Part shown: one piece after another, positions 34,979-52,212 of the stretch
How positions within the stretch are numbered: position 1 is the stretch's first letter
How the letters are laid out: the number at the start of each line of letters is the position of its first letter
Source: an uncultured bacterium
GTDB taxonomy: Bacteria; Deinococcota; Deinococci; Deinococcales; Trueperaceae
Direction of reading: 5' to 3'
Length of the DNA: 64,000 bases
Assembly (NCBI GenBank): GCA_964616005.1
Contig: CAZTTB010000001.1
Span: 56,330-120,329, forward strand
Translations under genes and position numbers: made by a program
Notes under the pieces: model-generated
The model's database searches: none
What the model was told of the DNA's origin: nothing
The model's input: only the letters and a program-made list of their open reading frames with translations

Positions 34979-35878
34979 GTGCGACGGGCCTGGCTGTTCG
35001 CTCTGCTGGTGATCCCCCTGCTGGTGACGGCGTGTGCGCCGGGTACGGAGGCGGGCATCGCGGCGCCGACGTTCACGGTGCTGCAGAGCGGGACGGGCTT
35101 CCGCTCCGTCGACCCGCCCGGTGTCGGGGCGGGTGACGCCGTGTTCGACGTCCGTCTCCGGGCGACCAATCCCAATCCGATCGGCTTCACGCTGGCCAGC
35201 CTCGACGGGGACTTCTTCCTCGGCGGTCACCCGGCGGCAACGACGACGTTCCGCCGCGGGATCGAGTTGCCGGCCCACGGTAGCAGTGACCTGACCCTCG
35301 AGATCCGGGTGCCGCTGGCGCAGGCGCCCGCCCTCCTCCAGACGCTGGCCGGCCTGCTCACCGGCGCCTCCACGAGCTACCGCGTCGACGCCACGGTGGG
35401 CGTTCGGGTGTTCGGCGCGGTCCGGCGCTTCCCGCGCGCCACGCTGGCGCAGGGGAGCGTGCGGTGGTCGCCGGCCTGGGTCGCGCCGCGGATCCAGCTC
35501 GCCTCGTCCGGCCCCTCCTTGCACGTCGATTCCCTCACGCGTGTCACCGTGCAGATCGCGGCCACCCTGTACAACCCGGCTTCGCTGGGTTACGTGGTGC
35601 AGGCTCCGACGGTGCATCTGGCGTTCGCCGGTACCCCGGTCGCCACCGCGCAGCTCGGCCGCGTCGTGGCGCCTGCGGGCGCCACGGTTCCCGTCGACCT
35701 GACGTTCAGCTTCAACCCCTTGCAGGTCGGACCGGCACTGGCGGCCCAGATCTCGGCCGTCGCTTCGGGGGCCGGCAGCCTTGCCTTCGGCGTGTCGGGG
35801 CCCCTCGTGCTGGAGGCGCCGGGACTCGCCACCCACCATGTCGACGCAGCCGCGTTGTTGAGCGGCACCCTGCGCTGA
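34979..35878 (+). CDS. Lipoprotein with two LEA_2 (LEA14/WHy-like) domains
   Basis: Lipobox LLVTAC. Two repeats of the pattern (F)DV.L...NPNP.GF.L..L.G.F.L.G, as in LEA_2 domains. Confidence 0.55.
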   Translation: MRRAWLFALLVIPLLVTACAPGTEAGIAAPTFTVLQSGTGFRSVDPPGVGAGDAVFDVRLRATNPNPIGFTLASLDGDFFLGGHPAATTTFRRGIELPAHGSSDLTLEIRVPLAQAPALLQTLAGLLTGASTSYRVDATVGVRVFGAVRRFPRATLAQGSVRWSPAWVAPRIQLASSGPSLHVDSLTRVTVQIAATLYNPASLGYVVQAPTVHLAFAGTPVATAQLGRVVAPAGATVPVDLTFSFNPLQVGPALAAQISAVASGAGSLAFGVSGPLVLEAPGLATHHVDAAALLSGTLR

Positions 35879-38180: not shown

Positions 38181-38208
38181 GCTGCCTGCCGGGGCCGCGC
38201 GGACCCGC

Positions 38209-38955
38209 TCATACCCCCACGAAGTGTTCGATGATGTCGCGGGCGTCGCTCTCGCGCGTGGCGGTCTCGCCGGACACCTGGCCGTCACGGAGGAACACGA
38301 TGCGGTCGGCGTGCATGGCGGCGTTGGGATCGTGGGTGACCATCACCACGGTCCAGCCGGAAGTGTCGACGCCGTGCCTTAGGAGTTCCAGGACCTCGGA
38401 GCCGGTGTGCGTGTCGAGATTGCCGGTGGGCTCGTCGGCCAGCACGACCGCGGGGTCGTTGATGAGGGCGCGCGCGAGCGCCACACGCTGACGTTGCCCC
38501 CCCGAGAGCTGGCGGGGACGGTGGTTGAGCCGGTCGGCGATGGCCAGCTGGTCCGCCAGGTCGAGGAGCCGTTGGGCCGCCTGGGCTCCGCGCCCTGCGA
38601 TCTCGGCCGGCAGCAGGATGTTCTCGCGCGCCGTCAGGTTGGGGATCAGTTCGAAGCTCTGGAACAGGAAGCCCAGCTTGGTGCGTCGCAGTGCCGTCAG
38701 TGCGTCGTCGTCCAGATCCCCGGTCGCCTGACCGACGACCTCCACGCTGCCGCGGTCCGGCACGTCGAGCAGCCCCAACAGGTGCAGCAGGGTGCTCTTG
38801 CCGCTTCCGCTGGGTCCCATCACCGCCAGGAACTCACCCGCCCTGACGGCCAGGTCGATGCCCTTCAGAGCGTCGATGGTGAGGTCGCCGAGGCGGTAGC
38901 TCTTGCTCAGCTCGCTGGCGCGTAGGACTGGAACGTCGTTCGTTGCCATCGTCAC
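38209..38955 (-). CDS. ABC transporter ATPase (MacB/LolD/FtsE type)
   Basis: Walker A GPSGSGKST, signature LSGGQRQR, Walker B VLADEPTGNLD. Confidence 0.9.
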   Translation of the reverse strand: MTMATNDVPVLRASELSKSYRLGDLTIDALKGIDLAVRAGEFLAVMGPSGSGKSTLLHLLGLLDVPDRGSVEVVGQATGDLDDDALTALRRTKLGFLFQSFELIPNLTARENILLPAEIAGRGAQAAQRLLDLADQLAIADRLNHRPRQLSGGQRQRVALARALINDPAVVLADEPTGNLDTHTGSEVLELLRHGVDTSGWTVVMVTHDPNAAMHADRIVFLRDGQVSGETATRESDARDIIEHFVGV

Positions 38956-41519
38956 TCCACGAATCCCAACGCTCGGGTGGGGGAGAGTTGAGCCGCACGT
39001 CGCGCCGGCAGGAGCGAGGCGAGCAGGCCCACCAGGGGGGATGCCACCAGCGCCAGACCCACCAGGGTCCAGTCGATCGCCGGCGTCAGCAGGAAGCCGG
39101 TCAGGGCGCTCGCGCCAGCGCTGATGACCCGGGAGAGGAGCAACCCGAAGGCCACGCCGAGCACGGCGCCCACGGAAGTGACCACCATACCCTCAGAGGC
39201 GATGAGACGCCTCACGCCGCCGCGGGTCATCCCGACGGTGCGCAGCACGGCGATCTCATGGCTGCGGCTCACGAGGTTCATGCCAAGCGTGTTGGCCACG
39301 CCCAGGGCGGCGACCAGCACCGCGATCAACAGTAGCGTGTTGGTGGTCTGGAAGGATCGTTGCGTCAGCCGCAGGATGGCGCTCCGGTAGTCGGCGTTGA
39401 GGGTGGCGTCCAGATGGAGCCCGGGGAAGGCGGACAACAGTTCCCGGCGCACCTGATGTGGATCGGCGCCCGGCTTGTCGGCGATGACGAAGAGATCGGG
39501 CGCCCCGCCCCCGAACTCGGGCAGGTCGTGGATGCTGCCCACCACCGTCTCGCCGCCTCCGGTGAAGTCGACCACCACGCCGGCGACCGGGAACTCCTTG
39601 AAGCCGTCGACCGTCCGCAGGCGGATGGTGTCGCCCTTCTTGATGCCGTACCTGTCGCGCATGGTGTTGGCCACCAGGACCTGGCCGCCCTTGGACAGGG
39701 CGCGGAAGCCCTCGAGGTTGTTCCCCTGGCCCTGGATGTACTGGAAGCGGCCGAAGCCGCCGTTGGGATCGAAGCGCTGCGGGTCGACCAGGATCATGGC
39801 GATGGAGCGCCCGCGCCCACCTCCCTGCGGCTCGAAGCGGACCACCCGGATCCCCACACCGCTGGCCACTTTCACACCCGGAAGCTGTTGGGCCCGCTGC
39901 TCGAAGTCGTCGGGGAAGCTCACCGGCGAGGTCACGAAGACATCGCCCACGATGGTGGTGTCGACCCAGGAGGCGATGGCTCGGTTGATGCCGGCGACCA
40001 TCGAGCCGACGCCGATGATCAGGCCGGTGCCCACGGCCACGGTTCCGATGGCCACCCCGTTGCGGGCGGCGTTGCGCAGGGCGAAGTTGCTTCCCAGACG
40101 GCCCGATGTGCCGAACAGGCGCACCAGCAGGGGCGTGAACAGCGCCAGAGCAGGGCGCAACAGGCTGGGCGTGGCCATCGCGACCCCGACGAAGAACACG
40201 GCCATGGCGGTGCCGCTGGCGGCGAGGGCCAGGTACCCCGACCATGGCAGCACGCTCAGGGCCACGCCCAGCGCCAGAAGGCTCCAACCGAGCACCGCCT
40301 GGCGCAGCGGGGGCGCTTCCTCCGCATTCCGACCGGCTGCGATGGGCGGCGTGCGCGAGGCGCTCCGGGCCGGAAGGACGCCCGCGGCGAGCGAGACCAG
40401 GACGCCGACGCCGGAGGCCAGGGCCACGCTCCGGACCGGGATCACCAGGGTGCGGAACTCGAACCCCAGACTGACGGCGTTCATGCGGGTGATGACGTAG
40501 GCCAGGCCCACCCCGAGCAGCAGGCCCATCAGCACGCCCACGAGGCTCAGCGCCGCCGCTTCGTACAGCGCCAGTCGCTGAACGTCGCCACGCGTCATGC
40601 AGATGGTGCGCAGCAGGGCGTACTCACGAGTCCGTTCCACGACCGAGGCCATGAACGTGTTGTAGGCCATGAAGCCGCCCAACGCGAGCAGCGTCACGGC
40701 CAACACGGACAGTCCGGACTGCAAGGTATCGACGATGCCCGATGCCACGTTGCCGGACACGGCGGGGTAGGTCACGGTCAGGTCCTGCGACAGCGAGGGC
40801 AGGCGCGCCTCGATCCGGGCCCGCACGTCCTCCACGGGAACCGACGGATCGACCAGGACCTCGATGTGCGACGCCCGCCCCTGCATGTGCAGGATGGCCC
40901 GAAGGTCCTGGATGGCGATGATGCCCACGCGTCCGCCGTTGGTACTGGCGAGGCCGTAGCGATCGTCGAGGAGACCGGTCACGGTGAGCGGAACGTCCCC
41001 GAAGCTGGTCGCGAAGCGGACGGTGTCACCCACCGCGATGCCGCGCTCCTGGGCGAACCCCTGGGCGATAGCGACGCCGTCCGAGCCGGGTTGGGGCAGC
41101 GCGCCCTGGGCCAGCTTCGCCGGCAGGTCGCTCGGGACGGTGGTGACGCGGCCACTGAGCTGGAAGCCGGTGTCGACGCCCGGGATGATCGACTTCTGGA
41201 AGTCCTGGATGGCGCGAACGGGTTCGGCGCGGGTGTTCAGGACGGGGTACGCGGCCTTCACTCCGGACATCTTGCGGACCAGGTCGAGCGCGGGACCGTC
41301 CTCGAACACGGCCCGCCCTCCCGCGCCGGGCGTCACCAGCAGGTCGGCCTTCCCCGCAGCCGCCTGCAGCGCGCCGCGCACGTTGGCCTCGACGTTGGCG
41401 CCGACCGAGAGCGTGGTCAGCACGGCCGCGATACCGATACCCACGCCGAGGACCGTGGCTAGGCTGCGCCAGGGGTGCCGGAGCAGGTTCAGGAGGGCCA
41501 ATCGACGCAGCGCGGTCAC
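38952..41519 (-). CDS. Double FtsX-domain ABC permease (MacB/YbbP type)
   Basis: 855 aa. Two repeats of TM, large periplasmic domain and 3-TM FtsX module. 4-nt overlap with the ATPase gene. Confidence 0.85.
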   Translation of the reverse strand: MTALRRLALLNLLRHPWRSLATVLGVGIGIAAVLTTLSVGANVEANVRGALQAAAGKADLLVTPGAGGRAVFEDGPALDLVRKMSGVKAAYPVLNTRAEPVRAIQDFQKSIIPGVDTGFQLSGRVTTVPSDLPAKLAQGALPQPGSDGVAIAQGFAQERGIAVGDTVRFATSFGDVPLTVTGLLDDRYGLASTNGGRVGIIAIQDLRAILHMQGRASHIEVLVDPSVPVEDVRARIEARLPSLSQDLTVTYPAVSGNVASGIVDTLQSGLSVLAVTLLALGGFMAYNTFMASVVERTREYALLRTICMTRGDVQRLALYEAAALSLVGVLMGLLLGVGLAYVITRMNAVSLGFEFRTLVIPVRSVALASGVGVLVSLAAGVLPARSASRTPPIAAGRNAEEAPPLRQAVLGWSLLALGVALSVLPWSGYLALAASGTAMAVFFVGVAMATPSLLRPALALFTPLLVRLFGTSGRLGSNFALRNAARNGVAIGTVAVGTGLIIGVGSMVAGINRAIASWVDTTIVGDVFVTSPVSFPDDFEQRAQQLPGVKVASGVGIRVVRFEPQGGGRGRSIAMILVDPQRFDPNGGFGRFQYIQGQGNNLEGFRALSKGGQVLVANTMRDRYGIKKGDTIRLRTVDGFKEFPVAGVVVDFTGGGETVVGSIHDLPEFGGGAPDLFVIADKPGADPHQVRRELLSAFPGLHLDATLNADYRSAILRLTQRSFQTTNTLLLIAVLVAALGVANTLGMNLVSRSHEIAVLRTVGMTRGGVRRLIASEGMVVTSVGAVLGVAFGLLLSRVISAGASALTGFLLTPAIDWTLVGLALVASPLVGLLASLLPARRAAQLSPTRALGFVE

Positions 41520-41526
41520 GTCCCCC

Positions 41527-41609
41527 AGTGTACCGTCGCCGCGCCGTTTCCGCAGGCCCCGGGAACCGTCACCCAGCCGAAGCGCTTCTCACGGCGCCGG
41601 CGGTAGAAT
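41527..41609. promoter_or_regulatory. Back-to-back -10 boxes for the divergent permease and GT4 genes (both candidate leaderless)
   Basis: Minus strand: TACACT (41527-41532) 7 nt upstream of GTG 41519. Plus strand: TAGAAT (41604-41609) 8 nt upstream of ATG 41618. Confidence 0.45.
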
Positions 41610-41617
41610 CGGCCGAA

Positions 41618-42847
41618 ATGCGTATCGCGTACGTCACCGATGAGGCGTATCCCGGATTCGGCGGGCAGGCCACCGCCACGGAGGCGCACGTCCGGGCCCT
41701 GGCGGACCTCGGCCACGAGCTCCACGTGGTGGTCGGACGCCAGCGCGCTCAGTCCGAGCCCCCCGCGGGCGTGAGGCTGTCGACGTTGCCGGTGTTCCCG
41801 TTGGGATCGCTGTCGCACATCGCGCTGCCCCGGAAGAGCGTGCTGGTCCCGGTGCTGGACTGGGCCGACATCGTGCACATCAATCTTCCCGGTCCGTTGG
41901 CTGCGACCACCATGCGTCTGGCTCGCAGGCGCGGTCTCCCGGTGGTGATGGGGCTGCACATCCAGGAGCAGAACACGTCGATGCACCTTCTCGGGCCGCT
42001 GCGCCCCATCTTGGAGGGCATCCTTCACCGCTTCTACCGGAGGCTCTTCGGCGAGGCCGACTGTGTCACGGCTCCAACGGCGTTCGCCGGGCGGCTCGCG
42101 GGGAGCTACGCGCCGCCCCGCATCGAAGTGGTGTCCAACGGCCTCGATCCGTTCACCGAGGATCCCGGCTTCGACGAAGAGGTCGATACCCTGCGACGCG
42201 AGTTGCTCGCAGGCGGCGACGACGTGGTGCTGACGTACGTGGGCCGGCTCTACCCCGAGAAGCATCCCGAGGAGCTCGTCGCGTTGCTGGCCGCTGCCCG
42301 TGAGCGCGGCTCGAAGTCGGTGCTGGCGGTGGCGGGACGCGGCCCGCTGAGCGAGCGCATGCTCGAGCTGGCGCGCCGCGCCGGGGTCGCCGACCACGTG
42401 CGACTCCTGGGCTTCGTCCAGGAACGTCGCAAGCGTGCGTTGTTGCGCGCCACGGACGTGTTCCTGATGCCCTCCGAGGTGGAGCTGCAGAGCATCGCGA
42501 CCATGGAGGCCATGAGCGCCGGATGCCCCATCCTCACCGCCGACTACCCGACGAGCGCCGTACCGGAGCTGGTGAAGGAGTGCGGAGCCGGCGTCGCCTA
42601 CCCGGCGGGACGACCCGATCGAGGAGCGCAGATCCTGATGGAGATGCTGGCCGACGAGGGGGGGATGACGCGTTACCGGCGCGCGGCCCGTGTGTCGGCC
42701 GGCTCGTTCGAACTGCCGGCCATCGGGCGTCGTCTCGCGGCGATCTACGAGGAGCTCATCGCCGGGCGCGGTACGCCGGGCGCGGCACGTCGCCCGCGGG
42801 ATCGACGGTTCACTCGCGACGAGGCGCCGTTGCCGGGACGCTCCTGA
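41618..42847 (+). CDS. GT4-family glycosyltransferase
   Basis: MRIAYVTDEAYPGFGG N-terminus and a C-terminal E-x7-E motif (EVELQSIATMEAM). Confidence 0.85.
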   Translation: MRIAYVTDEAYPGFGGQATATEAHVRALADLGHELHVVVGRQRAQSEPPAGVRLSTLPVFPLGSLSHIALPRKSVLVPVLDWADIVHINLPGPLAATTMRLARRRGLPVVMGLHIQEQNTSMHLLGPLRPILEGILHRFYRRLFGEADCVTAPTAFAGRLAGSYAPPRIEVVSNGLDPFTEDPGFDEEVDTLRRELLAGGDDVVLTYVGRLYPEKHPEELVALLAAARERGSKSVLAVAGRGPLSERMLELARRAGVADHVRLLGFVQERRKRALLRATDVFLMPSEVELQSIATMEAMSAGCPILTADYPTSAVPELVKECGAGVAYPAGRPDRGAQILMEMLADEGGMTRYRRAARVSAGSFELPAIGRRLAAIYEELIAGRGTPGAARRPRDRRFTRDEAPLPGRS

Positions 42848-42871: not shown

Positions 42872-43861
42872 TCATCCGGCTTCCTGTGCGCGTCGCGTCA
42901 CCAGGTAGCCGCCGAGCAGCGGGCCGAGCAGGAAGATCGAGTAGAAGGTCACCAACCGCCACAGCAGCACCACACCGGGGACCGACGTGCCGCCTCCCCG
43001 GGCGATCAGCACGTAGGAGATGCCCAGTTCGAAGAAGCCGCTGCCTCCCGGCGTGGGGACGAAGGTCGACATCACCACGACCACCATCTGGGCCGCTTCG
43101 ATGACGGGGAGCGACACCATCACCCCGAGCCCTCGTGCGAGGAAGAACAGGATCGAGAAGAAGCTGATCCAGGAGGCGGCCGTGACGGCCTGCAGTGTGA
43201 GGTAGAAGCCGAGTGGCGCGTTCTTGAACAGCCGGTTCGACTCCAACATCGTCTCGACGAACCGCAGCCCCTGCCTCCGCCACCGGATCAGAGGGCCGCG
43301 CAAGATCCAGCGTGCGATCGGTTCCAGCCAGGCCAGGCGGAACTGCACCAGGTAGGCGACCGCCGCCGACAGAACCACGGTGAGCGCTCCCAACGCCAGC
43401 CAGGCGGCTCCCTGCGGGTACAGTCCGAGCGCGTAGAGCATCCCCAGCGCGATGGGCAGGCCCCAGGTGTGGAACAGCGCGTCGGCGCCGAACACGGCCA
43501 CGCCCACCGCCCACGCCACCCCCGGGGGCAGCTTCTGGCCCTGCAGGGCGAGAGCCAGGGCGGGCGTCGAGCCGCTGCCGCCGGGCGTCACGGTGGCGCT
43601 GAACATGCCGAGGATGTGGGCGCGCAGGGCGTGGAACAGCGGCAACCGGTAGCCGAGCCGCCGACACATGTAGATGAGGCGCAAGGCGGCCAGGGTGAAC
43701 GCGCCCAGCAGACCGCCGAGCGCCGCCAGCGCGTACGTCCACGGGAGCTGCCGGATGATGGTCAGGTCCTGGACCTTGCCGACGCGGAAGACGACCCAGG
43801 CGAGCCCCAACGCGCTGAGCACCATCGACACGATGAGCGAACGCAGGACGGTCCTGTTCAA
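42872..43861 (-). CDS. UPF0104 / LPG_synthase_TM flippase-like membrane protein
   Basis: Polytopic protein with the conserved TPGGSG loops seen twice (VTPGGSGSTP, PTPGGSGFFE). TTG 43861 follows GGAGG and overlaps the upstream stop (TTGA). Confidence 0.7.
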   Translation of the reverse strand: MNRTVLRSLIVSMVLSALGLAWVVFRVGKVQDLTIIRQLPWTYALAALGGLLGAFTLAALRLIYMCRRLGYRLPLFHALRAHILGMFSATVTPGGSGSTPALALALQGQKLPPGVAWAVGVAVFGADALFHTWGLPIALGMLYALGLYPQGAAWLALGALTVVLSAAVAYLVQFRLAWLEPIARWILRGPLIRWRRQGLRFVETMLESNRLFKNAPLGFYLTLQAVTAASWISFFSILFFLARGLGVMVSLPVIEAAQMVVVVMSTFVPTPGGSGFFELGISYVLIARGGGTSVPGVVLLWRLVTFYSIFLLGPLLGGYLVTRRAQEAG

Positions 43862-45033
43862 GGAGCCTCCGTCAAGTCCGCCAGGTGCGCGGCGATGGCG
43901 AGCGTCCCGGGTCGGAACCCCAGGGCTGCGACGCGCTCCTGCCAGGCGCGAAGCGGCGCGCGGTCCTCGCACAGGGGTGCCAGCAGCGCCACGACGTCGC
44001 GCGGCCGGGGCACGTAGCCGCCGATGCCGTGCTGCATGCAGTAGTCGAGGTTTCGCTTCTCGTTCGGAGCCACGTAGCTGGTGTGGAAGATGGGCCGACC
44101 CAGGGCCAACGCCTCGAAGGTGGAGGCTGCGCCCGCTTTGCCGATCACCAGATCACTGGCCGCGATCCACTCGGGCATGTTGGTGGCGAAGCCCACGACC
44201 TGCAGCCGGGTCCGGCCGCCGGCCGCGGCGTGGGCGTCGGCCAGGTGCTGCAGGCGTGCTCGGAGCTGCTCGTTGCGGCCCGTCACGACCACGTACTGCA
44301 GGTCGAGGTCGGCCTCCAACACGGCACCGGCGATGCCTTCGACGTTGCCTCCGATGCCCTCGCCGCCCGGCGTGTGGAGCACGGTGAGACGGTCGGCGTC
44401 GAGGCCGAGGCCACGGCGCGCGGCCGCGAGGGTGGGGACCTCGTCCACGAACGCGAGGCTGAGCGGGTAGCCGAAGATCCGCAGGCGCTCCGCGGGCACG
44501 CCCTTGGCGCTCAGCAGCGCGCGCGCCTCATCGCTGGCCACCACGATCTCGTCGACGCCCCTGACCGCCCACAGGGCGTGGCCGTCGAACGGATCGGTGT
44601 CGATGCCCACCAGCGTGGCATCGAGCTCACCCCGACGCCGCGCCATGGCGGCCGCGAGGAGCGGCATGAAGTGCACGCCCACCACCAGATCGTAGCCCTG
44701 AGCGCGCACGAAGGCGGCCAGCCGCCGGCTGAAGCCCTGCAGCATCCATGCCTGGACCGCCTGCGTCCAGGACACCGGGATCACGCGGTCGATCAAGTTC
44801 TGGAGCACGAAGGTGACACGCGGATGGGCGAGCATCCACTTCCAGCTCCGCTTGTGGCGACGATCCAACGCATCCTCGCCGAGGTGGTGCATGATGTCGA
44901 GCACGTCGATGTCGAAGCGGTCCGGCCAGCTCCGTTGGAGGGCCGCCTGCAGGGCCATGGCCGGGGCGCGGTGTCCGCCGCCGGCTTCGATCATGGCGAT
45001 GAGGATGTGCGGGCGCCCGCCGCCGGGGGTCAT
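43858..45033 (-). CDS. MGDG-synthase-like / GT28-family glycosyltransferase
   Basis: N-terminal ILIAMIEAGGGHRAPAMAL motif (MGDG_synth type) and a GT28 C-terminal domain (GKAGAASTFEALALGRP). Confidence 0.8.
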   Translation of the reverse strand: MTPGGGRPHILIAMIEAGGGHRAPAMALQAALQRSWPDRFDIDVLDIMHHLGEDALDRRHKRSWKWMLAHPRVTFVLQNLIDRVIPVSWTQAVQAWMLQGFSRRLAAFVRAQGYDLVVGVHFMPLLAAAMARRRGELDATLVGIDTDPFDGHALWAVRGVDEIVVASDEARALLSAKGVPAERLRIFGYPLSLAFVDEVPTLAAARRGLGLDADRLTVLHTPGGEGIGGNVEGIAGAVLEADLDLQYVVVTGRNEQLRARLQHLADAHAAAGGRTRLQVVGFATNMPEWIAASDLVIGKAGAASTFEALALGRPIFHTSYVAPNEKRNLDYCMQHGIGGYVPRPRDVVALLAPLCEDRAPLRAWQERVAALGFRPGTLAIAAHLADLTEAP

Positions 45034-45058
45034 GGCGTCGTCTCCGGTCTCTTGCCCG

Positions 45059-46177
45059 TCACACGTCCGGCAGCGTCTCGAAGGTCTTGAGCGCCTGAGC
45101 GACCACCTGGTCCATGTTGTAGTAGCGGTACGTGCCGAGGCGGCCGGCGAAGGTGACGTGCTCGAGCTCGGCGGCCATGGCGCGGTACGCCTCGTAGAGC
45201 GCCCGGTTCTCGGGTCTGGGGACGGGATAGTAGGGGTCGCCTTCGGCCCGCGGATGCTCGTACACGAGCACCGACTTGGTGTGGCGCTGGCCGGTCAGGT
45301 GCTTCATCTCGGTGCGCCGCGTGTAGGCGTAGTCGTTCGGGTAGTTGGTGGTGCCGGTCTCCTGCACCTGCTCCTGGTCATGGGTGACGAACTCGAACTC
45401 GAGCGAGCGGTAGGGCAGGGCACCGAGCTCGTGCTGGAAGTAGCCGTCGATGGGGCCGGTGTAGATCAGGTGCTTGTGAGGGACGAGGTCGGCCACCTCG
45501 CGGTAGTCGGTATTGAGCATGACCTTGATGTTGGGATGCCGCAGCATGCGGCGGAACATCGCGGTGTAGCCGTGCAGCGGCATCGCCTGGTAGGTGTCCG
45601 TGAAGTAGCGATCGTCGCGGTTGGCACGTACCGGCACCCGGGCGGTCACGGAGGCGTCGAGCTCCCTGGGCTCGAGCCCCCACTGCTTCTTGGTGTAGCC
45701 ACGGAAGAACTTCTCGAACAGCTCCTGGCCGACCCGGGCCACCACCACGTCCTCGGACGTCTCGATGCGCTCGCGCTTGATCGCGCGGGCCGCGAAGAAC
45801 GCCTCCACCTCGGAGGCCGACAGGTCGAGGTTGTACAGCGTATTGATGGTGTCGAGGTTGATGGGGATGGGCACCAACCGGCCGTCGACCAGGGCTCGTA
45901 CGCGGTGCTGATAGGGGCGCCAGGCGGTGAAGGCGGACAGGTAATCGAAGACGTACTTGGCGTTGGTATGGAAGATGTGCGGCCCGTAGCGGTGGACCAG
46001 CACGCCATCTTCGTCGTACTCGTCGTAGGCGTTGCCCGCGATGTGATCTCGGCGGTCCACCACCAGCACGCGGCCGCCACGCTGGGTGGCGATCCGTTCG
46101 GCGAGGACGGCTCCCGAGAAGCCAGCGCCCACGATGAGGAAGTCGAATCCCTCGCTCATGTCGCGCCACCATACCAC
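45059..46177 (-). CDS. glf: UDP-galactopyranose mutase
   Basis: FDFLIVGAGFSGAVLAE FAD box, RDHIAGNAYD and YGPHIFHTN motifs. The true start may be ATG 46159 (MSEGFDF...). Confidence 0.9.
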   Translation of the reverse strand: MVWWRDMSEGFDFLIVGAGFSGAVLAERIATQRGGRVLVVDRRDHIAGNAYDEYDEDGVLVHRYGPHIFHTNAKYVFDYLSAFTAWRPYQHRVRALVDGRLVPIPINLDTINTLYNLDLSASEVEAFFAARAIKRERIETSEDVVVARVGQELFEKFFRGYTKKQWGLEPRELDASVTARVPVRANRDDRYFTDTYQAMPLHGYTAMFRRMLRHPNIKVMLNTDYREVADLVPHKHLIYTGPIDGYFQHELGALPYRSLEFEFVTHDQEQVQETGTTNYPNDYAYTRRTEMKHLTGQRHTKSVLVYEHPRAEGDPYYPVPRPENRALYEAYRAMAAELEHVTFAGRLGTYRYYNMDQVVAQALKTFETLPDV

Positions 46178-46213
46178 CGCTGCCGACGCGTCCGCGGCGT
46201 GTGGCGGCGGCGG

Positions 46214-47200
46214 CTAGGTGGGGGTCAGCGCGCCCACCGAGCGTCGCAACCCCTCGCGCCAGGACACCATCGGGCGGTAGCCGAGCTCCTCCGCCGCATG
46301 CCGGATGCTGAAGTGCACGTCCCGCGTCATCAGGCCGGCGCGGTAGCGGGTCATGGGAGGCTCGTTGCGTGGGAAGAGGGCGCCCCAGGTCGCCTCGACA
46401 CCGCGCGCCAGAGCCTTGGTGGGGGTGCCCGGGAGGCGCAGGCGCGGCGGTCGCTCGCCCAACAGCCGCGCCAGCTCGGAGAGCAACTCGCGCCAGCTCG
46501 GCATGCCGTCGTCTGCGATGACGTAGGTCCGGTGGGCGGCCTCGGGCCGTTCCAACGCCAGCCGTACCCCGAGAGCGAAGTTCTCGGCATAGGCGGTGTT
46601 GATGACACTGTCGCCGCTCCCCACCATCGGCAGCAGTCCCTGCTCGAGGGCGCGCACGACACGGCGGAGGTTCGGGTCGCGGGAGCCGAACGGCCACAGC
46701 CCGGGACGCACGATCACGCCCTCGATCCCACCGACCTGCCGGACCAGGTCCTCGGCCATGATCTTGGAGTGCGCGTACGGCTCGCGGACGTTGTCGCGAG
46801 GGACCTCGCGCGGGTCGGCATCGCGGAAGCCGCTGTAGCGATGGACGGCGACGCTCGAGATGAGCACGAACCGGCCCACGCCGACGTGTACGGCTTCCTT
46901 CAGAAGCTGCTCCGTGCCCACCACGTTGGTCCGGTAGAAGGCGTCCCACGGTCCCCAGTCGGCGACGCGCGCAGCCGCGTGCACCACGGCATCGATGCCA
47001 TCGCAGGTACCGACGAGGGCGCCCTCTCGACTGAGGTCGGCGCGTTCGATCTGCAGGCCCGGCTCGTCGAGCACGGCGCCAAGGTTGGCGATCGTCCCCC
47101 AGGGGGACACCAGGGCCCGCACCTGATGGCCGGCGGCCAGCAGGTGTTCGCTGATGTGGCTCCCCAGGAAGCCATGGGCACCGGTAACCAGAACGTTCAT
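46214..47200 (-). CDS. Extended-SDR NAD(P)-dependent reductase/epimerase (3-beta-HSD-like)
   Basis: TGAHGFLGS Rossmann box and YAHSK catalytic pair. 328 aa. Confidence 0.85.
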   Translation of the reverse strand: MNVLVTGAHGFLGSHISEHLLAAGHQVRALVSPWGTIANLGAVLDEPGLQIERADLSREGALVGTCDGIDAVVHAAARVADWGPWDAFYRTNVVGTEQLLKEAVHVGVGRFVLISSVAVHRYSGFRDADPREVPRDNVREPYAHSKIMAEDLVRQVGGIEGVIVRPGLWPFGSRDPNLRRVVRALEQGLLPMVGSGDSVINTAYAENFALGVRLALERPEAAHRTYVIADDGMPSWRELLSELARLLGERPPRLRLPGTPTKALARGVEATWGALFPRNEPPMTRYRAGLMTRDVHFSIRHAAEELGYRPMVSWREGLRRSVGALTPT

Positions 47201-47275
47201 GTCAGCCGCCGCAGCCCAAGCCTACCAGGAAGGGGGTCCGGACGGTCCTTCCGGACGCGCCTGCCGGCCACGACG

Positions 47276-48010
47276 TCAACCGTGGAACAGCAGGCCCTGG
47301 TGGTAGAGAACGAACACATCGGTGGACAGGCCGATGACCAGGTGGATGATCGTGGAGTACAGGACCGACCGGCTCCGCAACGCGAGCGCACCGAACAGCA
47401 GACTGGCGGGCAGGGCGGCCAGCAGCTCGGTCATGGGCTTGCCGAGATGGATGAGGGTGGCCGCCAGCGACTGCACCCAGATGGCTTGCGGTGCGCCCCA
47501 GGCGTCGGCGACGATGCTTTGCAGGAAGCCGCGGTAGAAGAACTCGAAGGCCACGTAGTACAGGCCGTAGATCACGGCCCACAGCCCGATGGTGGCGAGG
47601 CTGCGGCCGACCCACGCGCCCGCCCACGGGTAGGTCGCTTCGAGACCCTTGTCGAAGCTGCCTAGGTACATCAGCGGGATGACGATGACGGAGCCGCCGA
47701 GCGCCGCCGAGAGACCGAAGCGCACGTCGCCCAGGCGGAGCCCCACGTGCTTCAGGTCGATCCCCACCACGGCCAGCAGCAACGCTGGCAGCGCCATCAG
47801 CAACACCAGCGACCACGCCACCGTGGTCACGCCCGTCAGCAGGTTGCGCGGCTGGAACTGCATCAGCGCGGGCCCGGGACTGGCGACGTACCAGAAGCCC
47901 GCCTGCAGGAGCACGGCGGCCGTCAACAGGAACCACAGCCGCGCATGCTTCCGGTCGAAGAGCTGCGCCAGGTCGGCGAACACCACACCGACCGAACGCA
48001 GCGGGTTCAC
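47276..48010 (-). CDS. CPBP-family intramembrane metalloprotease
   Basis: Polytopic protein with FEFFYRGF (ExxxR), LIHLGK and IIHLVIG motifs. GTG 48010 overlaps the upstream stop (GTGA). Confidence 0.75.
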   Translation of the reverse strand: MNPLRSVGVVFADLAQLFDRKHARLWFLLTAAVLLQAGFWYVASPGPALMQFQPRNLLTGVTTVAWSLVLLMALPALLLAVVGIDLKHVGLRLGDVRFGLSAALGGSVIVIPLMYLGSFDKGLEATYPWAGAWVGRSLATIGLWAVIYGLYYVAFEFFYRGFLQSIVADAWGAPQAIWVQSLAATLIHLGKPMTELLAALPASLLFGALALRSRSVLYSTIIHLVIGLSTDVFVLYHQGLLFHG

Positions 48011-49116
48011 AGCGCCTTCTGGTACATGCGGTAGGTCTTGTAGAGCTCGGCGCCCGCTGCCTCGATCCCGCGGTTCATGGCGTCGTTGTCTTCCAGCACC
48101 CAGCTGCACTCGCCGCCGGTGTAGCCGATGGCGCGACCGCGCCTGGCCGTCTCGGCGATCATCAGCAGCTCGAAGCCCTTGTGGCGGTATTCGGGCAGCA
48201 CCCCCAGGATGGCCAAGCGTCCCTGAGTGATGATCTTCTTGCGGTTGAGGAGGTGGAAGATCCCGAAGGGGATGAGCCGGCCATTGAACTTGGCGAGGAC
48301 CTGGTTGAGGTCGGGGATGGTGATCGACAGCCCGACGGTCTCGCCCTTGTACTCCAGGAACAGCGCCAGCTCGGGCTCCATGATCATCTTGAGGTCGTTG
48401 GCCAGATAGTCGAACTCGGCGTCGGTGCCGCGCACCTGCCCCCAGTTCTCCTCCCACGCCACGGTGTAGAGGTGCTTGAGCAGGCCGACCTCGCGCTTGA
48501 ACTGCTTCATGTCGGCGGGTCGCACGGTGACGTCGTAGCGTTTGCGGACGCGGTCCGCCATCCGCTCCAGGCGCTCGGTGGCGCCGTGGCGGATGTCGAT
48601 CTTCCAGGCGTAGAGGTCCTTGACCTTGTGGTAACCGGCGGCTTCCGCGTAACCCAGGTAGTCCGCCGGATTCTGCAGCATCATGATGAACGGCTTGGTG
48701 TCGAACGCGTCGATCTGGAATCCGGCGCCGTCGTCCATGGTGGGGTTCGCGGGCCCGCGAACGATGGCCCTGCCAAGGGCCCGCGCCTCGGCCTCGACGG
48801 CTCCGTAGAGTGCCGAGGCGACCTCGGCGTCCTCGGCCTCGAAGAAGCCGAAGAACACCAGGTTGTCGCCGAACTGTTCGTTGTGGGCGTCGTTGTCGAT
48901 GCAGGCGATACGGCCGACGATGCGTCCGTCGCGTTCGGCTAGGTAGGGGGTGATCCGACCGTGCTGGAAGAAGGGGTTCTTCTTCGGATTCAGCTTGTCG
49001 AACTCCCCCATGCGGAGCGGGGGAACGAAGGTAGGATCACCCCGGTACTTGTCGTAGACGTAATCAATGAAGCGACCCAGGTCGCGTTTCGTCGCGACCT
49101 TCTTGATCTCGACCAT
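48007..49116 (-). CDS. Two-domain GNAT-type acyl-CoA N-acyltransferase-like protein
   Basis: 369 aa. The C-terminal domain has GNAT motif A (ILGVLPEYRHKGFELLMI). The N-terminal FIDYVYDKYRGDPTFVPPL pattern recurs in an uncharacterised family, as I recall it. Confidence 0.55.
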   Translation of the reverse strand: MVEIKKVATKRDLGRFIDYVYDKYRGDPTFVPPLRMGEFDKLNPKKNPFFQHGRITPYLAERDGRIVGRIACIDNDAHNEQFGDNLVFFGFFEAEDAEVASALYGAVEAEARALGRAIVRGPANPTMDDGAGFQIDAFDTKPFIMMLQNPADYLGYAEAAGYHKVKDLYAWKIDIRHGATERLERMADRVRKRYDVTVRPADMKQFKREVGLLKHLYTVAWEENWGQVRGTDAEFDYLANDLKMIMEPELALFLEYKGETVGLSITIPDLNQVLAKFNGRLIPFGIFHLLNRKKIITQGRLAILGVLPEYRHKGFELLMIAETARRGRAIGYTGGECSWVLEDNDAMNRGIEAAGAELYKTYRMYQKAL

Positions 49117-49140
49117 GGCTGATCACCCCTTGTTCGGCTG

Positions 49141-50409
49141 TCAGATTACACCAAGCCCCTTGCCCACCGTCTCGAATGCGGTGAGCAGGAGGTCGAGCTC
49201 CTCGTCGCTGTGGTTCGCATTGACGCTCGTGCGGATGATCGAGTGCCCCGGAGCGACGCCCGGCGGAAGCGCAGGCGTCGTGAACACGCCCGCGTCCCAC
49301 AGCCCCTTCCAGAAGGCCAGAGCACGATCGTCCTCACCCACCAGCACCGGCACGATCGGCGTCTCGGAGCCGAGCGTGTCGAAACCCAGGCGCTGCATGC
49401 CGGTGCGGAAACGCTTTACGTTCTTCCACAGTCGCACGCGGTGCTCGGGCTCGGTCTCCATGATGTCGAGCGCGGCCAGAGCGGCGGCCATCTGCATGGC
49501 GGGCAGGGCGGCGGTGAAGATGAACGGGCGCGCGTGGTGCTTGACGAACTGCACCACCTTGCGGTCGCCGGCCATGAAGCCACCCACGCTGGCGAACGAC
49601 TTCGAGAAGGTTCCGATGATGACGTCGACGTCGTCCTCGAGGCCGAAATGCTCGCCGGTGCCGCGCCCGCCGTCGCCCAGAACACCGCTGGCGTGGGCGT
49701 CGTCGATCATGAGACGCGCGCCGTAGCGGCGTTTCACGTCGACCAGGCCCGGCAGATCCACGATGTGGCCGCTCATCGAGAACACGCCGTCGGACACGAT
49801 GATGCGTCCGCCCGGCTTGTCCGCGTCCGCCGCGAGCAGGCGCTCGAGGTGCTCGAGGTCGTTGTGGTCGTACTTCCGCAACGTCGCGTACGAGAGCCGC
49901 GCGGCGTCGTACAGCGACGCGTGGTTCTCGCGGTCGTAGTACAGGATGTCGTGCCGCCCCGCGAGGGCGCTCACCACCGACAGGCAGCCCAGGTAGCCGG
50001 CGCTGAAGGTGAGGGCCGACTCCTTGTTCAGGAAGGTCGCGAGGCGCTGCTCGAGCGTCTCATGGAGCGTCAGGGTGCCGGTCAGGAAACGCGAGCCGGT
50101 GCAGCTCGTGCCGAAATCGTCGAGGGCGTCGCGGGCGGCGCTCTTGAGCCGTTCGTCCTGGGTGAGGCCCAGGTAGTCGTTGGAACCGGTGATCACCATC
50201 TCCCGGCCGTTGGCGCGGACGGTGCCGCCATGCTGGGCGGCGATGGGCTTGAAGTAGGGGTGCAGGCCCGCCGATTCGGCCTGTTCGGCTCGATTGAACG
50301 CGAAGGCCTTGGTGAAGGCGTCTCGAGCACGCGCCGAGCGCTGCTCGGCGTCCTCCTCGATGACCGGGTTCTGGCGGGTGTCAACGACCTCAGACAAGAC
50401 TTCCTCCAA
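49141..50409 (-). CDS. PLP-dependent alpha-oxoamine synthase, serine-palmitoyltransferase-like
   Basis: PLP-Lys box GTFSKSFASVGGF, ENHAS His and DDAHASG. 422 aa. The start is TTG 50409 or TTG 50397. Substrate cannot be read from the sequence. Confidence 0.85.
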   Translation of the reverse strand: MEEVLSEVVDTRQNPVIEEDAEQRSARARDAFTKAFAFNRAEQAESAGLHPYFKPIAAQHGGTVRANGREMVITGSNDYLGLTQDERLKSAARDALDDFGTSCTGSRFLTGTLTLHETLEQRLATFLNKESALTFSAGYLGCLSVVSALAGRHDILYYDRENHASLYDAARLSYATLRKYDHNDLEHLERLLAADADKPGGRIIVSDGVFSMSGHIVDLPGLVDVKRRYGARLMIDDAHASGVLGDGGRGTGEHFGLEDDVDVIIGTFSKSFASVGGFMAGDRKVVQFVKHHARPFIFTAALPAMQMAAALAALDIMETEPEHRVRLWKNVKRFRTGMQRLGFDTLGSETPIVPVLVGEDDRALAFWKGLWDAGVFTTPALPPGVAPGHSIIRTSVNANHSDEELDLLLTAFETVGKGLGVI

Positions 50410-50432
50410 CGCGGCTACAAGCCAATTAGGGC

Positions 50433-50438
50433 ACTATA
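50433..50438 (-). promoter_or_regulatory. -10 box TATAGT upstream of the AOS operon
   Basis: Minus strand reads TATAGT, 23 nt upstream of TTG 50409. No clear -35. Confidence 0.35.
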
Positions 50439-50635
50439 GCACGCACCCGTCGGAGTCCAGCACGGGCGCGGCGGGTCGTCACACCCTACGCAAAAGGGAT
50501 CGGATGCGCAAGCGGGACCCGCGGCGTGGCCCCGGCTCGGGTCCCGGGCGGGGGACCTCCGGAGGGCGCCCGGGTCCGCGCCCCGGCTGTGTGGGCTTGT
50601 GACCCAGTCGTCGGCGGGCGTCGCGACGGGCGCGT

Positions 50636-50641
50636 TATACT
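50636..50641 (+). promoter_or_regulatory. -10 box TATACT, 6 nt upstream of GTG 50648
   Basis: TATACT-tgcgcc-GTG, the same architecture as at 25586. Confidence 0.4.
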
Positions 50642-50647
50642 TGCGCC

Positions 50648-50698
50648 GTGGCCGTCACAACCTACGTGCCGTGCATGCTTGGAGTGCCGGAAGGATGA
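50648..50698 (+). CDS. Candidate leaderless 16-codon uORF (MAVTTYVPCMLGVPEG)
   Basis: The GTG lies 6 nt after the -10 box. Its TGA stop overlaps the ATG of the downstream GNAT gene (ATGA). Purely positional evidence. Confidence 0.25.
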   Translation: MAVTTYVPCMLGVPEG

Positions 50699-51231
50699 GC
50701 GCATTGAATCTGACGTCGCCCGGTGCCCTGACGCGTCCCGCTGATGCCTCGGACGCCACCCTGGTCCACCGTCTCTACGAGAAGACCCCCGGCTATTTCG
50801 ACGTCATCTCGATCCCCGTCCCGACCCTGGCCGAGGTCAAGACCGACCTCGAGACCGCGGTCCGGGACGCCCGCAGGCACACCGAGCTGGTGCTCCTGCC
50901 GCCCGACGGGCGGGCGCCGCACGATGCGGAGCTGAGGGACCCGGTGAGCGGTCGTCAGGTCGTCGGCTACCTCGACTACAAGCTCGACTACCCGGACACC
51001 GGGGACGCTACGGTCAACCTGCTGCTGATCGAGGGCGATATGCAGGGGCGCGGCCTCGGCGGCCACTGCGTGCGCGATCTCGAGGGGCGCCTTCGCGGTC
51101 GCGTGCGCCGCGTGCTCGCCAGCATCTACGCGCAGAACCCACGTGCCCGCCGCTTCTGGGAGCGGCTGGGGTACGCCTTCGCGATCGATGCGAAGCCCGT
51201 GCTCGACTGGTACGCCAAGCAGCTCGTCTGA
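50695..51231 (+). CDS. GNAT-family N-acetyltransferase
   Basis: Motif A LLLIEGDMQGRGLGGHCV and a C-terminal NPRARRFWERLGY. ATG 50695 chosen. The in-frame GTG 50599 would place the -10 box inside the gene. Confidence 0.6.
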   Translation: MSALNLTSPGALTRPADASDATLVHRLYEKTPGYFDVISIPVPTLAEVKTDLETAVRDARRHTELVLLPPDGRAPHDAELRDPVSGRQVVGYLDYKLDYPDTGDATVNLLLIEGDMQGRGLGGHCVRDLEGRLRGRVRRVLASIYAQNPRARRFWERLGYAFAIDAKPVLDWYAKQLV

Positions 51232-51296
51232 CCCCGGCCCGGTCACGCCGGATCGCTCTCGAGACCGGCCGGGTATGCCGGGCGCGGGGACCGGTG

Positions 51297-51302
51297 TATC
51301 CT
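51297..51302 (+). promoter_or_regulatory. -10 box TATCCT, 7 nt upstream of ATG 51310; candidate leaderless promoter
   Basis: TATCCT-ttccgtc-ATG. No SD. Confidence 0.4.
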
Positions 51303-51309
51303 TTCCGTC

Positions 51310-52212
51310 ATGAAGCATGTCGTGAGCGTCTCGCTCGGTTCCGCCAAGCGTGACACCGACCAGACCGTGACCATCCTCGGGGAGCAGGTCCACCTGGAGC
51401 GGCGGGGGACGCAGGGGGATTTCGACGCCGCCCGCGCTCTCATCGCTGAGCTCGACGGCCGGGTCGATGCCATCGGGCTCGGCGGCATCGACCTGTTCCT
51501 GCCGGTGGGCGCCAGGCGGTACTACTTCCGCGACGCCCGCAGCCTGGCGGCAGCCGCCAAGCGGACGCCCGTGGTGTGCGGCGCCGGGCTGAAGAACAGC
51601 CTGGAGCGGGCGATGGTGCGGGCGCTCGCCGGCCGGTTGTCGTGGCAGGGCCGGAAGGTGTTGATGGTCTCGGCGCTCGACCGCTTCGGCATGGCCGAGG
51701 AGCTGGTAGCGCACGGTGCCCACGTGCTGTTCGGCGACTTCATCTTCTCGCTGGGGTTGCCCATCCCGCTCTACCGCCTGGGCACGCTGCACGCCCTGGC
51801 CACGGTGCTGTTGCCGGTGTTCGTCCGGTTGCCGTTCAAGTGGCTCTACCCGGTGGGCGCGAGCCAGGAGACCGAGGCGACCACCGAGCGTTTCGAACGC
51901 TACTACCGCTGGGCCGACGTGGTGGCGGGCGATTGGCACTACATCCGGCGCTACGCCCCCGCCGACCTTCATGGCAAGACGGTGCTCACCAACACCACGA
52001 CCGAGGCCGACGTGGCCTTCTTGAAGGCGCGCGGCGTGCGCACGTTGATCACCACCACGCCGCGCTTCGACGGCCGCAGCGTAGGGACGAACCTTCTCGA
52101 GGCCGCGTTCGTCGCCATCGACGGGGGCACGGGCGAGCTCTCCGCCGAACGCTACCGTGCGATGATCGAGGACGCTGAGCTCGAGCCGTCCGTGCTCGAG
52201 CTCGCGTCCTGA
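51310..52212 (+). CDS. Conserved hypothetical protein (I recall homologs auto-annotated as quinate 5-dehydrogenase; unverified)
   Basis: 300 aa with an N-terminal VVSVSLGSAKRD...GLGGIDLFL pattern. Function unknown. Confidence 0.5.
   Translation: MKHVVSVSLGSAKRDTDQTVTILGEQVHLERRGTQGDFDAARALIAELDGRVDAIGLGGIDLFLPVGARRYYFRDARSLAAAAKRTPVVCGAGLKNSLERAMVRALAGRLSWQGRKVLMVSALDRFGMAEELVAHGAHVLFGDFIFSLGLPIPLYRLGTLHALATVLLPVFVRLPFKWLYPVGASQETEATTERFERYYRWADVVAGDWHYIRRYAPADLHGKTVLTNTTTEADVAFLKARGVRTLITTTPRFDGRSVGTNLLEAAFVAIDGGTGELSAERYRAMIEDAELEPSVLELAS

Follow-up and report, generated by a model that had tools for sequence, protein, structure and literature searches.

A compact operon predicted to make a ceramide-type glycolipid in Trueperaceae

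What do seven tightly packed genes in an uncultured member of the Trueperaceae make? The genes occupy the minus strand at positions 42872-50409 of a 64,000-nucleotide stretch of DNA (contig CAZTTB010000001.1 of assembly GCA_964616005.1, positions 56,330 to 120,329; ~70% G+C), which we call the window. Comparison of their products and gene order with those of other bacteria indicates that the block probably makes a ceramide-type (sphingolipid) glycolipid from a compact operon, a predicted product that would begin with an alpha-oxoamine synthase (AOS), a tandem GNAT protein and a short-chain dehydrogenase/reductase (SDR). The seven genes, in the order in which they are read, are:

49141-50409, minus strand: AOS, 422 aa (Pfam Aminotran_1_2, 194 bits)
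48007-49116, minus strand: tandem GNAT protein, 369 aa (weak GNAT signal only in Pfam)
47276-48010, minus strand: CPBP/Rce1-like intramembrane protein, 244 aa (Pfam Rce1-like, 39.7 bits)
46214-47200, minus strand: extended SDR, 328 aa (Pfam Epimerase, 98.8 bits, and 3Beta_HSD)
45059-46177, minus strand: Glf, UDP-galactopyranose mutase, 372 aa (TIGR00031)
43858-45033, minus strand: GT28/MGDG-synthase-type glycosyltransferase, 391 aa (Pfam MGDG_synth and Glyco_tran_28_C)
42872-43861, minus strand: LPG_synthase_TM (MprF-type) flippase-like protein, 329 aa from the TTG at 43861 (Pfam PF03706)

An earlier note, made from the letters of this DNA, had described the same seven genes with their start/stop overlaps and gaps of at most 75 nt, and both its coordinates and the letters hold. 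Read directly, the GNAT stop and the CPBP start share a GTGA (48010 to 48007), and the GT28 stop and the TTG start of the flippase-like gene share a TTGA (43861 to 43858) with GGAGG four nucleotides upstream of it; the remaining gaps are 24, 75, 36 and 25 nt. The motifs on which the note relied, GTFSKSFASVGGF in the AOS and TGAHGFLGS and YAHSK in the SDR, are all present, and Pfam and NCBIfam matches bear out its family assignments for the AOS, CPBP, SDR, Glf, GT28 and flippase-like proteins and for a GT4 glycosyltransferase that converges on the operon.

Judged by its sequence, the 369-aa protein is a member of the bacterial ceramide synthase family (CerS/bCerS/YghO; CC_1154 in Caulobacter). 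Its AlphaFold2 model (pLDDT 84) has a tandem GNAT fold, and the best Foldseek matches are the tandem GNATs 2wpw, 7q3a, 5kf1 and MshD (TM ~0.6). A sequence search of the PDB returned marginal GNAT matches only (E ~0.1), and NCBIfam has no model that matches the protein, a null result that is uninformative because YghO and the Sphingomonas CerS-like protein are also without one. When plasmid records are searched by tblastn, the protein aligns over its full length with E. coli YghO (33% identity, E 5e-56) and with GNATs of Bacteroides and Prevotella (28-32%); it is also 31% identical, again full length, to the cerS-syntenic N-acetyltransferase of Sphingomonas parapaucimobilis. YghO and this Sphingomonas protein served as stand-ins for Caulobacter CC_1154 in testing family membership. 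Aligned by hhalign to the YghO, Sphingomonas and Bacteroides proteins, the Trueperaceae/Rubrobacteraceae family matches with a probability of 100% (E 5.6e-79) over 373 of 381 columns.

The link from these proteins to ceramide synthesis comes from a published listing that pairs E. coli yghO (ECD_02850) with CC_1154 and gives them as the gene for the acyl-CoA N-acyltransferase that dihydroceramide synthesis requires (PMC9386255). In E. coli yghO adjoins genes for a fatty acyl-AMP ligase, an SDR, an ACP (acyl carrier protein) and a serine palmitoyltransferase (SPT) that passes its NCBIfam cutoff. In Sphingomonas the GNAT homologue follows lptF-lptG and lies near cerR-like, acp and spt genes, an arrangement that matches that of Caulobacter cerS (CC_1154), which sits beside lptG2 and lptF2 (PMC11324152). 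It is the end-to-end match to YghO and the cerS-syntenic proteins, together with the published equivalence of yghO and CC_1154, that places the 369-aa protein in the family. The earlier note had suggested comparing the protein with Caulobacter bCerS by structure and hidden Markov model (HMM); a tandem GNAT fold and a profile match to the YghO family are the outcome, and both favour its reading. Family members in several Roseomonas plasmid records (H10, H12, H14, H15 and H19) are annotated 'dATP pyrophosphohydrolase', which is probably a propagated misannotation.

Family comparisons likewise show the AOS to be an SPT-like enzyme. Its best NCBIfam match is the CFB-type SPT (424.7 bits), followed by bioF (379), the BetaP SPT (378.6) and Kbl (350). 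Its top PDB match is the SPT of Sphingobacterium multivorum (3a2b/8guh; E 3e-104, 352 bits), ahead of Thermus ThAOS (293), the SPT of Sphingomonas wittichii (274), cysteate acyltransferase (258.6) and the housekeeping enzymes Kbl (~240) and BioF (~199). In a neighbour-joining tree (200 bootstraps) the AOS of the window and that of Rubrobacter join the S. multivorum SPT and a natural AOS::GNAT fusion at 83.5%, and the SPT group that holds the AOS is split from Kbl, ThAOS and BioF at 87%. The pyridoxal phosphate (PLP) box GTFSKSFASVGGF has the SPT form (GTFSKS...GGF); the corresponding boxes read GTLGKA in Kbl, VTFGKG in BioF and ATLSKA in ThAOS.

Conservation extends to the active site. We mapped about 20 active-site and acyl-wall residues of the S. 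multivorum SPT (PMC10196870) onto the AOS by pairwise alignment. N52, Y54, G80, S81, F83, L84, H138, S185, D210, A212, H213, T241, S243, K244, F272 and A274 are identical, as are the acyl-wall residues Y27 and F28, and the four changes are conservative (A79T, F114Y, M271I and S273T). An exact-sequence look-up of the AOS found no record.

Three observations count against the SPT assignment. The AOS lies below every curated SPT cutoff (CFB 424.7 against 640 bits, BetaP 378.6 against 500, AlphaP 292.3 against 670), cutoffs that the Sphingomonas and E. coli SPTs, run as controls, pass. Its identity to the S. multivorum SPT (43%) is scarcely above that to ThAOS (42%), a broad-specificity Kbl/BioF enzyme of Thermus. 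The tree is small, with ten sequences only.

Is the pairing of an SPT-like enzyme with a ceramide synthase-like GNAT more than local coincidence? We compared 80 species-representative loci, of which 73 have enough upstream and 57 enough downstream sequence. In 68 of the 73 (93%) the GNAT gene has an AOS gene directly upstream of it in the same orientation, and in 50 of the 57 (88%) it is followed by an SDR gene. The packing of the genes is thus not due to chance, since the same order recurs across dozens of species-level genomes. One locus, in a Trueperaceae metagenome-assembled genome (MAG; L064), encodes a counterpart 98% identical to the 369-aa protein of the window, and the whole block is syntenic; the Deinococcus-Thermus-like setting assumed in the earlier note is thus correct for the phylum. 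A HMMER search of the full library with the GNAT family recovered 1028 representatives at E < 1e-30. Among its top matches are natural AOS::GNAT fusions from metagenomes (P0172 in L086, 8001-10343, and P0194) and a protein that carries a tandem duplication of the GNAT (P0121). A further fusion among them joins the GNAT to an AMP-binding domain like that of fatty-acyl-AMP ligases (P0145 in L095, 7001-9823), which points to a fatty-acyl donor.

The coupling is not universal, and this counts against the predicted pathway: three Trueperaceae loci (L021, L022, which is the same as L096, and L038) hold a GNAT gene with no neighbouring AOS. These solo GNATs are ~57-60% identical to the window protein, and no AOS, SDR or GT28 gene lies within 9 kb of them. 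An aminotransferase near the solo GNAT of L096 was considered as an AOS and proved not to be one.

These data bear directly on a simpler account, in which the AOS is a housekeeping Kbl or BioF and the GNAT an unrelated acetyltransferase that adjoins it by chance. Its bioF and Kbl HMM scores are high, which would suit this account; both, however, fall below their own cutoffs (379 against 426 bits for bioF and 350 against 460 for Kbl) and below the SPT score, and the tree sets the AOS apart from Kbl, BioF and ThAOS. Pfam and NCBIfam scans of the window proteins place no tdh or bio genes in the lipid cluster or near the AOS, and the 93% adjacency, the natural fusions and the membership of the GNAT in the ceramide synthase family all argue for a functional pair. 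We regard the housekeeping account as extremely improbable, in agreement with the earlier note, which had called the AOS SPT-type rather than Kbl or BioF and had looked to a phylogeny to separate them.

The third core enzyme is harder to place. The best NCBIfam matches of the SDR are OleD (158 bits) and HpnA (132 bits), families that act on lipids, and these are also the nearest curated families of the CerR counterparts in E. coli and Sphingomonas. Two results weigh against a closer relation: the window SDR shares no more than 26-29% identity with them, and in a reciprocal-best-hit test against E. coli chromosomes with a yghO cluster the top match is YbjS instead of CerR. Orthology with CerR (CC_1164, an NDUFA9-like SDR) is not demonstrable from these results, and because the reciprocal test failed we do not call the protein CerR. 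Rubrobacter, L086 and L094 have SDRs that lie nearer to CerR than that of the window, and an SDR gene flanks both the AOS::GNAT fusion of L086 and the distant triad of L094. The window SDR is thus of the same broad kind as CerR and shares its nearest families, but is no demonstrable orthologue. From this context we infer that the window SDR works like CerR, reducing the 3-keto group of an N-acylated base.

If the core makes a ceramide, what is attached to it? The GT28 protein has both domains above cutoff (N-terminal PF06925, 36.9 against 25 bits; C-terminal PF04101, 36.2 against 22). Its best PDB match is Arabidopsis MGD1 (4wyi, E 3e-30) and its next a processive diacylglycerol glucosyltransferase, so that it is closest to lipid glycosyltransferases of the MGD1 and UgtP type. 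The flippase-like protein matches PF03706 (97 against 33.4 bits) and TIGR00374 (84.5 against 43.2) over the full-length domain. Of the 57 loci, 41 have a GT28 gene after the core genes and on their strand, and 33 have the flippase-like gene. Glf passes its curated equivalog model (TIGR00031, 389.4 bits against a cutoff of 303.75) and is found within 6 kb downstream in only six. The conservation that the earlier note had looked for is thus partial: the block is kept in Trueperaceae and in a shortened form in Rubrobacteraceae, and Glf is a lineage-specific insertion outside it.

Glf nevertheless tracks with its neighbours. When loci of the same AOS identity to the window (85%) are compared, the Glf-positive L007 has a GT28 68% and a flippase gene 85% identical to the window, against 36% and 61% in the Glf-negative L011. 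In the Glf loci L006-L009 and L064 the identity to the window is 68-96% for GT28 and 85-98% for the flippase gene; in the equally related Glf-less loci L010-L013 it falls to 36-49% and 61-63%. AOS, GNAT and SDR stay ~75-85% identical across both sets. By this pattern Glf, GT28 and the flippase gene look like one swapped head-group cassette, and a galactofuranose head group in the window lineage is consistent with it.

The enzymes that follow the triad differ elsewhere too. They are GT28 and flippase-like proteins in Trueperaceae and Rubrobacteraceae MAGs, PAP2_3 in L086 and a sulfatase/LtaS-like protein in L094. On plasmid 1 of Rubrobacter radiotolerans RSPS-4 (L088, 14230-19822) the AOS-GNAT-SDR triad is followed by an LTA-synthase-family gene. 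A single FAD-dehydrogenase gene separates this plasmid triad from a type I-D CRISPR-Cas locus; the triad lies ~2.3 kb downstream of the latter. Because the enzymes after the triad vary by lineage and all act on a lipid hydroxyl, the layout fits a conserved lipid core with interchangeable head-group enzymes.

The position of GT28 raises the possibility of two modules that merely lie side by side, with AOS, GNAT and SDR making a ceramide-like lipid and Glf, GT28, the flippase-like protein and GT4 making ordinary diacylglycerol glycolipids of the Thermus and Deinococcus kind. Every characterised GT28/MGDG-synthase relative that was matched, MGD1 and the UgtP type among them, uses diacylglycerol and none uses ceramide, which speaks against ceramide as the acceptor, and some loci with a retained core (L001, L015, L024 and L034 among them) lack the GT28 and flippase genes or have them displaced. 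Yet GT28 follows the core on the same strand in those 41 loci across two phyla that share no other tested flanking genes; the operon has gaps of at most 75 nt, and the GT28 and flippase genes overlap by 4 nt. An MGDG_synth gene also adjoins the GNAT::AMP-binding fusion in the unrelated locus L095, and other lineages hold a different lipid head-group enzyme at the same position. We consider two separate modules unlikely and, arguing from gene context, take ceramide as the presumed sugar acceptor of GT28.

Which amino acid enters the pathway? With the same enzymes, an AOS that uses alanine, glycine or another amino acid would give a 1-deoxy- or nor-sphingoid N-acyl amino alcohol. The shortfall of the AOS against the curated SPT cutoffs leaves room for this, as does the nearest Deinococcota AOS structure, ThAOS, whose annotation names 8-amino-7-oxononanoate synthase as well as 2-amino-3-ketobutyrate CoA ligase. 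SPT itself accepts alanine and glycine, though poorly (PMC10196870), and 1-deoxyceramides have been discussed as bacterial lipids (PMC11334938). The contacts to the serine side chain and carboxylate are, however, kept in the window enzyme (N52, G80, S81, H138, S243, K244 and the GSRFL loop). The head-group enzymes after the triad would also need a free hydroxyl, which serine gives at C1 and alanine does not, and this need favours serine as the amino acid. A different amino acid thus seems quite unlikely, and we infer that the AOS uses serine.

Taken together, the glycosylated ceramide that we favour would arise as follows. The SPT-like PLP enzyme would condense a long-chain acyl-CoA with an amino acid (L-serine being the likeliest) to a 3-keto long-chain base. 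The tandem GNAT would N-acylate this base, a step order borrowed from the Caulobacter model, and the extended SDR would reduce the 3-keto group to give dihydroceramide. GT28 would then place a hexose on the free C1 hydroxyl, and in the window lineage this sugar may be galactofuranose supplied through Glf. The head group may be lengthened by GT4, and the MprF-type flippase-like protein would move the glycolipid to the outer leaflet; its transport on to the outer membrane may be the task of a MacB-type ABC transporter and the MMPL protein. Deinococcus and Thermus contain N-glyceroyl-alkylamine and long-chain 1,2-diol lipids. Such products were considered and rejected, in that an AOS, a CerS and a keto-reductase together give neither a plain alkylamine nor a nitrogen-free diol.

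The CPBP gene is the remaining member of the block. It occurs in 41 of the 57 loci, all with the Trueperaceae-type gene order, and is absent from the Rubrobacteraceae loci. Homologues in 54 loci share the motifs FEFFYRG, HLGKP and HLxIG..D. CPBP proteases carry an EExxxR motif; in FEFFYRG the first glutamate is replaced by phenylalanine, and the cluster protein may not be a conventional protease. We know of no role for a CPBP protein in sphingolipid clusters.

How the block is transcribed, and what surrounds it, is best read from the remaining features:

50433-50438, minus strand: possible -10 box TGCTATAGT (TATAGT, preceded by TGC), 23 nt 5' of the AOS TTG start
41528-42847, plus strand: GT4 glycosyltransferase, convergent with the operon (Pfam Glycos_transf_1 and Glyco_transf_4)
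38952-41519, minus strand: MacB-type permease (Pfam MacB_PCD and FtsX)
38209-38955, minus strand: ABC ATPase (Pfam ABC_tran)
35940-38288, minus strand: MMPL/RND transporter (Pfam MMPL)

The earlier note had placed all seven genes in one transcription unit behind the TATAGT box. The box is there, at 50438 to 50433, and no internal terminator of note turned up in the block; against this reading, a sigma-70 consensus scan at the box gave no full -35/-10 match. Because of that scan, a promoter at TATAGT and a single transcript are only plausible from the sequence. The AOS start may be miscalled, as a second in-frame TTG lies at 50397 with GGAGG five nucleotides before it.

The GT4 gene is syntenic in many Trueperaceae and Rubrobacteraceae loci, and its product possibly adds a second sugar. 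Its start is probably an internal ATG near 41618 (MRIAYV...), which would leave ~100 bp to the divergent MacB gene instead of 8 bp. Directly beyond it, on the operon strand, sits the trio of MacB permease, ABC ATPase and MMPL genes, which follows the cluster co-directionally in many Trueperaceae loci (L011, L017, L031, L047 and L085 among them) and is absent from Rubrobacteraceae loci. From this position the trio may be a candidate lipid export module, its membership of the system being suggested by neighbourhood.

Two further groups of genes adjoin the cluster. A LEA_2 gene (34979-35878, plus strand) lies next to the MMPL gene, and a homologue follows MMPL in L047; LEA_2-type (late embryogenesis abundant) proteins are associated with desiccation tolerance. 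On the other side, divergent from the AOS, the plus strand at 50599-52212 encodes a 210-aa GNAT and a 300-aa protein without a Pfam or NCBIfam match. The former is found in most loci of the Trueperaceae order and the latter in many, and both are absent from Rubrobacteraceae loci. They stand between the lipid cluster and efp-accB-accC, and probably reflect inherited synteny and not the pathway.

How did two phyla come to share these genes? Between Rubrobacteraceae and Trueperaceae the AOS is 65-70% and the GNAT 54-59% identical, and because these values are as high as those among Trueperaceae subclades, the sequences suggest horizontal transfer of the core genes. A broader proposal can be put only tentatively, and we hold it to be possible but doubtful: that Trueperaceae and Rubrobacteraceae share a self-contained glycosphingolipid operon, probably by horizontal transfer, which would stand apart from every bacterial sphingolipid system studied so far in having a GT28-glycosylated ceramide (bearing galactofuranose in the window lineage), its own MprF-type flippase, a CPBP participant and, in Trueperaceae, MacB and MMPL replacing Lpt paralogues. 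Trueperaceae (Deinococcota, diderm) and Rubrobacteraceae (Actinomycetota) are both desiccation- and radiation-tolerant.

Is any of this new? The earlier note had thought a sphingolipid pathway in Deinococcus-Thermus-like bacteria would be new. Literature searches that combined Deinococcus, Deinococcota or Rubrobacter with SPT or sphingolipids returned nothing relevant, though the ISME J 2024 work may already flag Deinococcota as encoding Spt-like proteins. The pathway itself is already known in other bacteria, and what is new is the host lineage (Trueperaceae and Rubrobacteraceae) and the accessory genes only. Nor is a wide distribution of Spt new in itself, because Spt-like genes have been reported in MAGs of 38 phyla, with 40 potential producer phyla in total (PMC11334938). 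For Truepera radiovictrix the polar lipids have been reported to be a complex mix, with glycolipids as well as phospholipids, that is uncharacterised (PMC3072082).

If confirmed, a ceramide glycolipid would bring two extremophile lineages into the set of bacteria known to produce sphingolipids, and would be a candidate component of the envelope with a bearing on tolerance of desiccation and radiation. Experiments have so far identified neither a flippase nor a transporter for bacterial sphingolipids (PMC11087976), so that the MprF-type flippase of the operon would be a first candidate; with the exporter genes, it provides concrete candidates, in a colinear operon, for the flipping and transport steps. 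Head-group enzymes are swapped in nature (GT28 either with Glf or without it, LTA-synthase-like and PAP2), which makes the head-group chemistry easily testable, and direct tests are feasible because both T. radiovictrix and R. radiotolerans RSPS-4 can be cultured.

Comparison with known systems sets these genes in context. MGDG synthase and UgtP share the two-domain architecture of the window GT28 and use a UDP-sugar to place a hexose on a two-chain lipid at its primary hydroxyl; the acceptor in the window would be ceramide instead, and the neighbouring Glf points to a furanose as the likely donor in this lineage. In the capnine/sulfonolipid pathway an AOS-family condensing enzyme and a keto-reductase also make a sphingoid-like base. 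The window AOS, however, scores lower on cysteate acyltransferase (258.6 bits) than on SPT (352), and no cysteate synthase gene was seen in the window cluster.

In E. coli B and enterotoxigenic E. coli, YghO, of the same family as the window GNAT, is likewise encoded beside an SPT and an SDR, and the E. coli B SPT makes 3-oxo-sphinganine (PMC9386255). Unlike the window AOS, that SPT is of the proteobacterial, ACP-dependent type, and the part of the yghO-spt cluster that we examined has no annotated gene for a glycosyltransferase or a flippase. Pfam and NCBIfam scans found no ACP (AcpR) or AMP-binding (AasR) gene in or beside the window cluster, which fits the Bacteroidota-like type, as that type has none beside its SPT. 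The closest characterised enzyme is indeed the soluble, stand-alone, Bacteroidota-type SPT of S. multivorum, which has the GTFSKS box, the GSRFL loop and the N-terminal acyl-wall residues in common with the window AOS. In Bacteroidota, however, the three genes for ceramide synthesis do not lie near one another (PMC11334938), whereas those of the window form one operon.

Caulobacter, Sphingomonas, E. coli B and Bacteroidota are known to have the Spt/bCerS/CerR ceramide pathway, and by the sequences of two of its three core enzymes the window system belongs to it. Caulobacter crescentus likewise combines a PLP-dependent AOS (Spt, CC_1162), a tandem GNAT of the same family (CerS, CC_1154) and an NAD(P) extended SDR (CerR, CC_1164). 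Its cerS gene lies apart from spt, next to lptF2/lptG2, whereas the window triad is in one operon; its head group is phosphoglycerate, whereas that of the window would be a sugar added by GT28; and in place of Lpt paralogues the window has the CPBP, MprF-type flippase-like, MacB and MMPL proteins. Acylation is proposed to precede reduction in bacterial ceramide synthesis (PMC11087976), and the window genes, AOS, GNAT and then SDR, are arranged in this same order.

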